A program made the position numbers. From a virus (taxonomy: Duplodnaviria; Heunggongvirae; Uroviricota; Caudoviricetes), in the IMG/VR virus record IMGVR_UViG_2551306491_000001, positions 1 through 9,014 of that record: a stretch of DNA of 9,014 bases. One strand, written 5' to 3'. Positions 6,001-9,014 of this stretch are shown here, in pieces (positions within the stretch are counted from its first letter, which is position 1; each line of letters begins with the position of its first letter).

Positions 6001-9000
6001 TGTATGCAAGTCCTCTCATGATTTACTCTCCACGAACTGGTCAACGGCCATGCTAAGTGACACACCTAAAGTCTCGATATGCTGCTGAATATCCTGTAGC
6101 GTCTGCGCCTGAGATAACAGGATTTCACGGTTGCATAATTCTTTAACCAGATGCTCAAACTTGCTGTAATAACCGATACGGCTTAGTGTTTCTTTCCCTG
6201 CATTCTCGCCTTCTTTGATAATTCCTCTTTCGCTAAGAATCAGATCGTGTTTGGTTCCGGTAATAACGTATTTGCCTAGGTCGATGTTTAGCTTCATTGT
6301 TTTCATTGTTAATTCCTCAGTCATTACTGATAGCGCCATAGCGTGAGCGGTAATTACGCAGGCGCGGGTCGATATATTCAGGGAATTTGTCTATTGTCGC
6401 TTTTCGCAACGGTCTCATTGCTGTTTCGTTTGTTCGGTCCTTCTCCTGTTTTAGCGCGAGTTGTATATCGCGTCGGTACATCCGTTCTGCTTTTGTTTCT
6501 GGTGTCAGAGCAAGAAACGCGTCGAAATTGTTTTTGATATTTCCCAGCACCTCCGCCTTGGAGCTACCGGAGCAGTTGCGCGGGTCATCCGCACCATACA
6601 GAGGCGCTGGCATAATGGGAGCCTTATTTTCAGTAATCAGAAAGGAGGGTAATCGTTCTGGCTGTAACCATAATCATCTGCATGATTATGGCTTACGTTT
6701 TTAGAGCGATTGTCTTTATCTTTGAGGCTGGCAACCATGTTGGCGATAGTTTCTGGTTGCTTGCCTTCTGCCTTTTCTTTAAGGGTTTGACCTGTTTGTG
6801 CAATAAACGGGATGCGTATTTCCATCTGGTAGCTGTCTGCGCCAGTCTTTTTGTTTGTGGTTAATACTTTCTGGAGCACTAACCCGATTTTCTTTCCATG
6901 AAATTCAGGTGCAACAAATTTACTGGCGGAAACCATATGTTGCGTTAATTGTCCAATCCCGGCACACCCCATCATGGCGTGAACGACATTTGCGCCAAAT
7001 TTGTTTTCCGTGCCGTCATTTTTCTGAACACAGACGCTAAGATACTGGATTTTACGTCCGTCGTCGGATTCTCCAGAAAACTCAATAAATTTGGCTCCTT
7101 TTTCTGATTGCTTGAGTTCTGCTTCAGTAATGGTAATTATGTAAGCGCCAGTTTCGTTAATAAAACCACCTTGCCCTGCGGTCAGTGCTGCTTCTTCGTT
7201 ATAAGTAAAAATTACGTTGCTCATGCGGCGTTTTCCTTAATTTGATGAACATTATTGATGCCGTAGTAATCACAAACAGTGGCATCGACGAAAGAGAGAT
7301 CGTTATCAATCTCATTGGAATCAAACATTCCCATTGGGGATTTAACAGTGTCTGCACCGTTGTTTTTCGTGGTGAAAAAGAACTGGTCATCGCGGGTAAG
7401 AGTGCGAAGAACTATAGTAAACATGCCTTCGACAGTGATTTTCTCGTCCAGCATTTTGCCGATAGTCTTCATTTTCACGCGCCCCATAGGGGTTTCTTCG
7501 GTGTGCGCAAGAAAATAGACTCTCAGGTCATCAGGCGCATCCTGTGCAGCCTTAATGACCTCCCATGCGTGGCGGCCTATCTCAGTAAATTTATCAAACG
7601 ATTTTTCTTCTGAGCGGCGCATAAACTCATTGCTCATCACATACTGGAAGTCATCAACAATAACGATTCTTTTTCCGTATTCGTGAGCACGCTTAATTAC
7701 AGCAACTATTACGTCCCATTTGTCAGTGGTAACTACGGTTCCTTTTTTTGCTCTGGCATCCCATGCAAGCCAGTTTTTTGATTTAAATGGTAGCGGCTTG
7801 CCTATTGGTTTTATAAGTATTGCTTCCTCTGGATTGATATTTCTCATGCTGGTTGATTTTCCGGTGCCAGACTCACCGAGTATTAATATCGCAGTTCCCA
7901 TAATTCACCTCAGAATGGTAATTCGGATGGGGAGGAAAGAAATTCGCGCTCATTCATGCGCTCTCTTTGTGCCTGCCATAAGCAAAGTTGTTTCTTTGAT
8001 TTATCTCCCGCTTTACGCCAGTAACGAGCCTCAGCAATGTGATACTCTCTTTTTAATCGACTTAACTCTGGGGTTTTCGCCAGTTCTACCGGAATCATTT
8101 TGACCTCCATTTTCTGTAGGCTTCTACGGCTTCACGAAACATCTTTTCATCGCCAATAAAAGTGGCGATAGTGAATTTAGTCTGGATAGCCATAAGTGTT
8201 TTATCCATTTTTTGGAACTCCTGGCTGATTAAGTATGTCGATAAGGCGTTTCCATCCGTCACGTAATTTACGGGTGATTCGCTCAAGTAAAGATTCGGAA
8301 GGGCAGCCAGCAACAGGCCACCCTGCAATGGCATATTGCATGGTGTGCTCCTTATTTATACATAACGAAAAACGCCTCGAGTGAAGCGTTATTGGTATGC
8401 ATATAAAAAGGCCCTCACACTGGAGGGCAAAGAAGATTTCCAATAATCAGAACAAGTCGGCTCCTGTTTAGTTACGAGCGACATTGCTCCGTGTATTCAC
8501 TCGCTGGAATGAATACACAGTGCTTATTCGTACTAATAAAATACCCAATTTTCTGTTTCTTGGTTGTGTCCAAAGTTATATTCAATATCTGTGAACCGCC
8601 CCGGGTTTCCTGGAGAGTGTTTTATCTGTGAACTCAGGCTGCCAGATCATCGTTTCCGATGGAAGCATAATAAGCTTTTTCTGCTTCTGCCGGAGGAGTA
8701 TGGCCCAGCCTTCCCAGCAATCGTCGATTGTTATACCAGTCCACCCACGTTAGTGTGGCCAGTTCCACTTCTGCACGGTTTTTCCAGCTCTTACGGTGTA
8801 TTACCTCCGCTTTGTAAAGACCATTGATGCTCTCAGCCATCGCGTTGTCATACGAGTCGCCTGTACTCCCTGTTGATGCCAGTAATCCGGCTTCTTTTAG
8901 TCGCTCCGTATAGGCCAGTGACACATACTGAGAGCCTTTATCGCTGTGATGGATGGTGCCAGACGGACGACGGGCCCACAACGCCTGCTCCAGCGCATCC

Positions 9001-9014
9001 AGCACGAATGTCGT

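Follow-up and report, generated by a model that had tools for sequence, protein, structure and literature searches.

The classical insertions of IS elements in the lambda pR operon are r14, an IS1, and r32, an IS2. As at the locus described here, the element in these mutants lies in an early operon subject to antitermination by N and downstream of a nut site, and read-through by N-modified polymerase is expected. Lambda N acts against intrinsic as well as Rho-dependent termination and also relieves the polarity of IS insertions, and Adhya, Gottesman and de Crombrugghe, in a paper cited in PMC2147009, reportedly found in 1974 that N releases this polarity; classical IS mutants such as r32 need more N/Nus function. 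The insertion analyzed here differs from r14 and r32 in that it belongs to the pL arm and interrupts an accessory ORF that is non-essential; read-through would be expected here.

In E. coli O157, IS629 is over-represented in the prophages (PMC5359411), and its copy number and position are described as the main driver of Stx2a phage diversity (PMC4587872). The IS629/IS1203 copies (IS51 group) of O157:H7 prophages are 1310 bp long, have imperfect 25-bp terminal repeats of the TG...CA type, carry orfA and orfB together with a pseudoknot, and are flanked by a 3-bp duplication. The copy studied here shares all of these features and shows no structural difference from the others. A close counterpart is found in the Stx2c prophage of strain 9000: the IS, the host strain and the kind of prophage are all the same (PMC5359411). 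There IS629 destroys xis and no clean excision was obtained (PMC5359411), whereas here only an ORF of unknown function is hit and excision of the prophage has been reported. Public genomes already have the insertion annotated, and it belongs to the known biology of IS629, with nothing new in kind.

Results

The element is a complete IS629/IS1203

The window, by which we mean the whole stretch of 9,014 nucleotides that was analyzed, is 100% identical across all 9014 bases to a locus of E. coli O157:H7 strain Z563 (NZ_CP062774.1). Positions on this larger locus are given below as L001, in which the window occupies 4002..13015. The right-hand end of the window (8592..9014, minus strand) is formed by the right-hand 423 bp of an IS629/IS1203 element of the IS3 family, the window ending within the IS. 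The complete copy in Z563 spans L001 12593..13902, and its 1310 bp fall within the length of about 1.2-1.55 kb that is usual for the IS3 family. It matches a second copy in the same prophage with 0 mismatches over 1310 bp, and thus the match of the 423 bases is not due to chance; ~17-25 matching places were found per O157 genome, which is roughly the copy number of the IS. The second IS629 lies in the tail region of the Z563 prophage (L002, another Z563 locus, 22868..24177) with ATAT on each side, and a tail-fibre gene near it is annotated as partial.

The inverted repeats of the element are imperfect and have TG...CA termini. IRR, the 25-bp terminal repeat TGAACCGCCCCGGGTTTCCTGGAGA at 8592..8616, agrees with IRL at 22 of 25 positions, and TGAACCGCCCCGG opens either end. 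The frame at 8634..9014 on the minus strand is the 3' part of the transposase gene orfB, comprising the C-terminal 126 codons and the stop codon (8634..8636). It points toward cIII and matches Pfam rve, rve_2 and rve_3 as well as NCBIfam NF033516 'IS3 family transposase' (E=2e-38), and full-length OrfB, a transposase of the DDE/rve type, scored 316.3 bits against NF033516 (cut-off 160). Upstream of it in the complete copy is orfA; the two ORFs (108 aa for orfA, 296 aa for orfB) overlap at L001 13522..13525 in the arrangement known from the family, and an ALIL frameshift pseudoknot lies within the IS (Rfam, 121.5 bits against a gathering score of 50). RefSeq marks a programmed frameshift in this copy, and -1 frameshifting is predicted here from the sequence. 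The element thus shows every feature of the IS3 family that could be tested. From its RefSeq label, 'IS3-like element IS1203 family transposase', and from the use of the name IS629 in the O157 literature (PMC4587872, PMC5359411), the element is best designated IS629/IS1203.

An earlier sequence-only reading of the window had recognized an IS3-family end at 8592, about 250 bp upstream of cIII, with the transposase reading toward the phage genes, and the present analysis agrees on every one of these points. The repeat begins at 8592, the transposase frame runs on the minus strand toward cIII, and the distance from the IS end to the cIII start codon (8341) is 250 nt.

The IS entered by simple transposition

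A CTG at 8589..8591 directly precedes the IS end and is one copy of a 3-bp target-site duplication, and the second CTG abuts the far IS end in Z563. The two junctions in Z563 read ...ATATCTG/TGAACC...GGTTCA/CTGGTATTG... (slashes mark the ends of the IS), with CTG on each side, in keeping with the 3-4 bp that the family duplicates. To obtain the sequence as it was before the insertion, we deleted the IS together with one CTG, and used 500 bp across the resulting junction as the query. The rebuilt empty site was found in one piece at 100%, and at the same chromosomal position, in the UK PT21/28 O157:H7 sister strains Z570, Z866, Z885 and Z1830. Strain 95NR1 also carries it at 100%, and the Stx2a phages Stx2_EH0505 and Stx2_16002 carry it at 99.8%. 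When 95NR1 and Stx2_EH0505 were aligned with both Z563 junctions, each had a single CTG at the insertion point; over three empty sites the CTG was single and the IS flanks were contiguous in the alignment. Z570 has the same argW prophage with identical protein accessions gene for gene, and in it the interrupted ORF is whole.

The pair of CTGs around the IS and the single CTG in the empty sites show that the element arrived by simple transposition, which duplicated the 3-bp CTG, and that no flanking DNA was lost and nothing was truncated. All the checks that the sequence-only reading had put forward favour a simple insertion.

The demonstrated damage is confined to the end of an accessory ORF

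The orphaned 3' end of the interrupted ORF, consisting of its last 18 codons and the stop codon, remains at 8533..8591 (minus strand). The intact protein, WP_000167592.1 of Z570, has 156 aa, and the interrupted one, WP_000167593.1, has 147 aa, made of 138 native residues and 9 residues encoded by the IS (VNRPGNPGD). PHROGs places the ORF in phrog_1636, a family of unknown function, and searches of Pfam and PDB sequences with the interrupted ORF gave no significant match. The loss of the last 18 residues of this 156-aa ORF is the sole demonstrated damage by the IS.

Between the IS and cIII, two terminator-like hairpins are predicted in tandem on the minus strand. One is GCCCTC-CAGTGT-GAGGGC (8411..8428) followed by CTTTTTAT, the whole covering 8401..8428; the other, AACGCTTCACTCGAGGCGTT (8371..8390), is followed by a T tract and covers 8361..8390. 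The fold of the tandem region has a z of -4.1. The same terminator sequence stands before cIII in uninterrupted relatives, marking it as native to the phage, and thus expression of the cIII-to-xis genes would be N-dependent with or without the IS. The terminator that the sequence-only reading placed at 8405..8428 is borne out, as a predicted structure, by the first hairpin, and its view that read-through from the IS would meet a terminator there holds for unmodified polymerase.

Beyond the terminators, the RNA element that serves as the cIII translation-initiation region and thermoregulator is intact (8296..8354, minus strand; Rfam RF01804, 88.5 bits). cIII itself (46 aa; 8201..8341, minus strand; Pfam Lambda_CIII, E=5e-30; annotated in RefSeq) is the gene that pL transcription would reach first after the IS, followed by kil (8095..8208, minus strand; Pfam Lambda_Kil; annotated in RefSeq). 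Inside the IS, the pL strand has one weak terminator-like hairpin (L001 13135..13120). A scan for promoter-like sites gave none on the minus strand at the IRR junction or close to it, and the region had 2 such matches against 4.6 expected from shuffles.

At the other end of the window, positions 1..21 are the 5' end of argW, a tRNA-Arg(CCU) gene on the minus strand. The integrase gene (142..1386, plus strand) is divergent from the early-left operon, whose last gene (1370..1552) encodes a 60-aa HTH protein of phrog_66 that is likely to be the excisionase. The recombination module of the operon (6317..7901) is not of the exo/bet/gam kind: it has a gene for an AAA_24-type ATPase (7221..7901) and one for a 195-aa protein of unknown function, together with a gene annotated as 'phage anti-RecBCD protein' (6317..6613). 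The annotation also shows a partial pseudogene of an MT-A70 methyltransferase at 2207..2539.

pL, nutL and N lie intact upstream of the IS

In Z563 the phage continues to the right of the IS with the remaining part of the small ORF, the N ORF, a boxB and the pL region. These are followed by a terminator, the stk kinase block, cI, cro, cII, the replication genes, the nin region and Q, and then by three tRNAs, the stx2a A and B genes, the lysis genes and the terminase, portal, capsid and tail genes, up to the end of the prophage at yfdC. It is a full-length Stx2a prophage of ~62 kb, integrated at argW, with all modules annotated. Its O-like replication gene, for an HTH domain protein, is flagged as frameshifted in Z563 and Z570 (776 bp) and intact in 9000 and 95NR1 (777 bp), as found at L001 19000..19775, L005 14845..15620 and L006 27000..27776; the frameshift may come from an error at a homopolymer in the assembly, or it may truly distinguish the strains.

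The N ORF is intact (127 aa; L001 14377..14760, minus strand), begins with MTRRTQFKGNSRSRRRERL and belongs to phrog_271 'anti-termination protein N-like' (E=3e-39). RefSeq leaves it without annotation in Z563, Z570, 9000 and DEC5E, and over its 3' end puts a 69-bp 'regulator' pseudogene in another frame. A boxB, GCGCTGACAAAGCGC, is located between the pL region and N (L001 14925..14939, minus strand), at the position of nutL, and a boxB-like sequence, TCGCTGACAAAGCGA, directly follows cro (L001 18438..18452, plus strand), at the position of nutR; two such matches were obtained in 0 of 100 shuffles. The nutL boxB is identical to that of P22 nutL. Further upstream, a promoter-like TTGATA-17-CATTAT at L001 15037..15009 (minus strand) lies within a fragment of this prophage that was cloned by Shaaban et al. 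as its CI-repressed pL (PMC5359411), and their pL primers map to L001 ~14985 and ~15232, one of them with a single mismatch.

As predicted from these matches, the arrangement along pL transcription is pL, nutL, N, the small ORF interrupted by the IS, both terminators, cIII, kil and the further genes down to xis. The IS has the same orientation as pL transcription and is positioned downstream of pL, nutL and N. It had been proposed that the insertion leaves the operon without its native promoter and N antitermination; instead, the pL region, the nutL boxB and an intact N adjoin the IS on its upstream side. The DNA to the right of the IS is not unrelated chromosomal DNA lacking a matching duplication, and N, pL and cI do follow there, as the same reading had suggested looking for.

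Strain 9000 carries the identical junction

The argW Stx2a prophage of strain 9000 has an IS junction identical to that of the window, and published observations on this strain bear on the activity of the prophage. N2a and cro2a were up 6-8-fold 30 min after mitomycin C in strain 9000, rapid lysis was seen in all PT21/28 isolates with the Stx2a prophage, and the repaired strain 9000R gave high levels of Stx2a (PMC6776261); these read-outs (N, cro, stx2 and lysis) all concern genes upstream of the IS or in the rightward arm, not the genes downstream of the IS. Strain 9000 'routinely' yielded spontaneous excisions of its Stx2a prophage (PMC5359411); these were obtained under selection and are accordingly not a quantitative gauge of the supply of Xis.

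If a cryptic or defective prophage is taken to be one that has lost essential modules, or that fails to be induced, to lyse its host or to excise, then the present prophage is neither, as judged on those properties from our own observations and the published data on strain 9000. Induction, lysis and excision have all been reported for a strain with this very junction, which in these three respects is incompatible with a cryptic state. The sequence-only reading thus stands in its identification of the element and in the position, orientation and duplication that it gave; its conclusions that the operon was cut off from pL/N and that the prophage was probably cryptic or defective are not supported.

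Strain 9000 also has an extra insertion in the same pL operon, an IS1203 in the opposite orientation in an ASCH-domain gene (L006, the strain 9000 locus, approx. 14075..15385; window ~3205..3489), and its Stx2a prophage has an ISEc8 in stx2A (L006 approx. 37100..39500). The version of the prophage in the window is without both.

Among complete genomes the junction was found only in PT21/28, and the interval is hit repeatedly

Of 5426 complete E. coli genomes, 27 had the exact junction in one piece at 100%: strain 9000 and a further 26 from the Z series, every one of them UK PT21/28. It was absent from all records of the phage collection searched, where no more than 70% of the prophage's left arm is covered by any record. 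The PA28/PST3 phage, which is integrated at argW and has two IS629 copies (PMC4587872), was suspected of carrying the same element, and a matching junction was not found. A literature search for IS629 with cIII returned nothing specific to an insertion at this site, and in the literature on IS629 and O157 prophages we did not find a discussion of the site at codon 138 of the phrog_1636 ORF between N and cIII.

Four PT21/28 isolates from one farm (S101; supplement of PMC8743559) differ at the site. In Z1830 (NZ_CP062713.1) it is empty, and Z1831, Z1832 and Z1833 (NZ_CP062711.1, NZ_CP062708.1 and NZ_CP062705.1) have the IS. This difference may reflect co-circulating sublineages, a recent gain, or precise excision via the IS-excision enhancer.

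Many other STEC lineages have IS3-family copies between N and cIII in either orientation, and the N-cIII interval is a recurrent insertion target. An independent IS629-like insertion was seen in O55:H7 strain DEC5E (NZ_CP038383.1; L007 approx. 2632..3941), in a homologous ORF of a different lambdoid prophage. Its distance from the Z563 site is 11 bp, its orientation is the same, and the duplication at its ends is GTA. The idea of an orientation bias near the site, prompted by DEC5E, was dropped when a chimeric query in the opposite orientation returned many N-cIII insertions from other STEC lineages.

Discussion

From the sequence we established the identity of the IS, its entry by simple insertion, the integrity of the regulatory elements upstream of it and the truncation of one ORF, and we infer that the IS is read through in an N-dependent manner. 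Probably this is a near-neutral simple insertion of IS629/IS1203 in an accessory ORF, with the genes from cIII to xis kept under the control of pL and N. A complete 1310-bp IS has transposed into the 3' end of the accessory ORF between N and cIII in the early-left operon of the argW Stx2a prophage of UK PT21/28. On induction, polymerase would load N at nutL before it enters the IS; because the IS lies downstream of nutL and N, the polymerase should already be N-modified on entry, and it would be expected to pass the IS and both native terminators upstream of cIII, so that pL and N would still govern cIII, kil, the recombination genes and xis. While pL is repressed in the lysogen, any weak read-through arising in the IS would be halted at the native terminators. 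The net effect would be an ORF of 138 native and 9 IS-encoded residues in place of 156 aa, and a distance from N to cIII that is 1.3 kb longer. The IS may still exert partial polarity on the genes from cIII to xis.

A strongly polar IS would give a different outcome: cIII to xis would be insulated from pL/N and silent, excision would fail, and the prophage would be trapped or cryptic, as in the 'IS entrapment' that Shaaban et al. propose for the Stx2c prophage, where IS629 lies in xis itself (PMC5359411). The 1.3 kb of foreign DNA with its weak terminator-like hairpin (L001 13135..13120) and the two further terminators ahead of cIII fit such a block. However, nutL and N are intact and upstream of the IS, the terminators are phage-native and occur in uninterrupted phages too, and for strain 9000, whose operon has this insertion plus another IS, routine excision and rapid induction and lysis have been reported. 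We therefore regard strong polarity as unlikely. That the IS marks the boundary of a deletion or rearrangement, the phage DNA to its right including pL and N having been lost, is suggested solely by the window ending within the IS; it can practically be dismissed, since the IS is complete, the CTG pair matches, the flanks are contiguous relative to three empty sites, a result that already refutes it, and N, the pL region, cI, cro and the remaining phage are present beyond the element.

The IRR end faces cIII, and IS3-family ends can contribute promoter elements when juxtaposed, so that the IS might supply an outward or hybrid promoter and make cIII, kil and the downstream genes constitutive in the lysogen. 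We think this very unlikely, as the region near the IRR junction has no minus-strand candidate, with promoter-like matches below the number expected (2 against 4.6), two terminators separate the IS from cIII, and lambda Kil is toxic if constitutive.

The orientation of the element might have a consequence of its own. Because the IS is co-oriented with pL and downstream of nutL, transcription upon induction might run into orfA and orfB. It is conceivable, though improbable, that N-antiterminated transcription entering these genes would produce a burst of IS629 transposase coupled to the SOS response, or that partial polarity would tune Kil, CIII and Xis and the kinetics of induction in PT21/28.

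For practical purposes, its presence or absence makes the insertion a clean marker among UK PT21/28 O157:H7 strains, one that is polymorphic even within one farm. It is a further case of IS629 diversifying Stx2a prophages, with little import beyond strain typing, and given the induction, lysis and excision published for a strain with this junction, it should not be taken as a sign that this clinically important Stx2a prophage is inactive.
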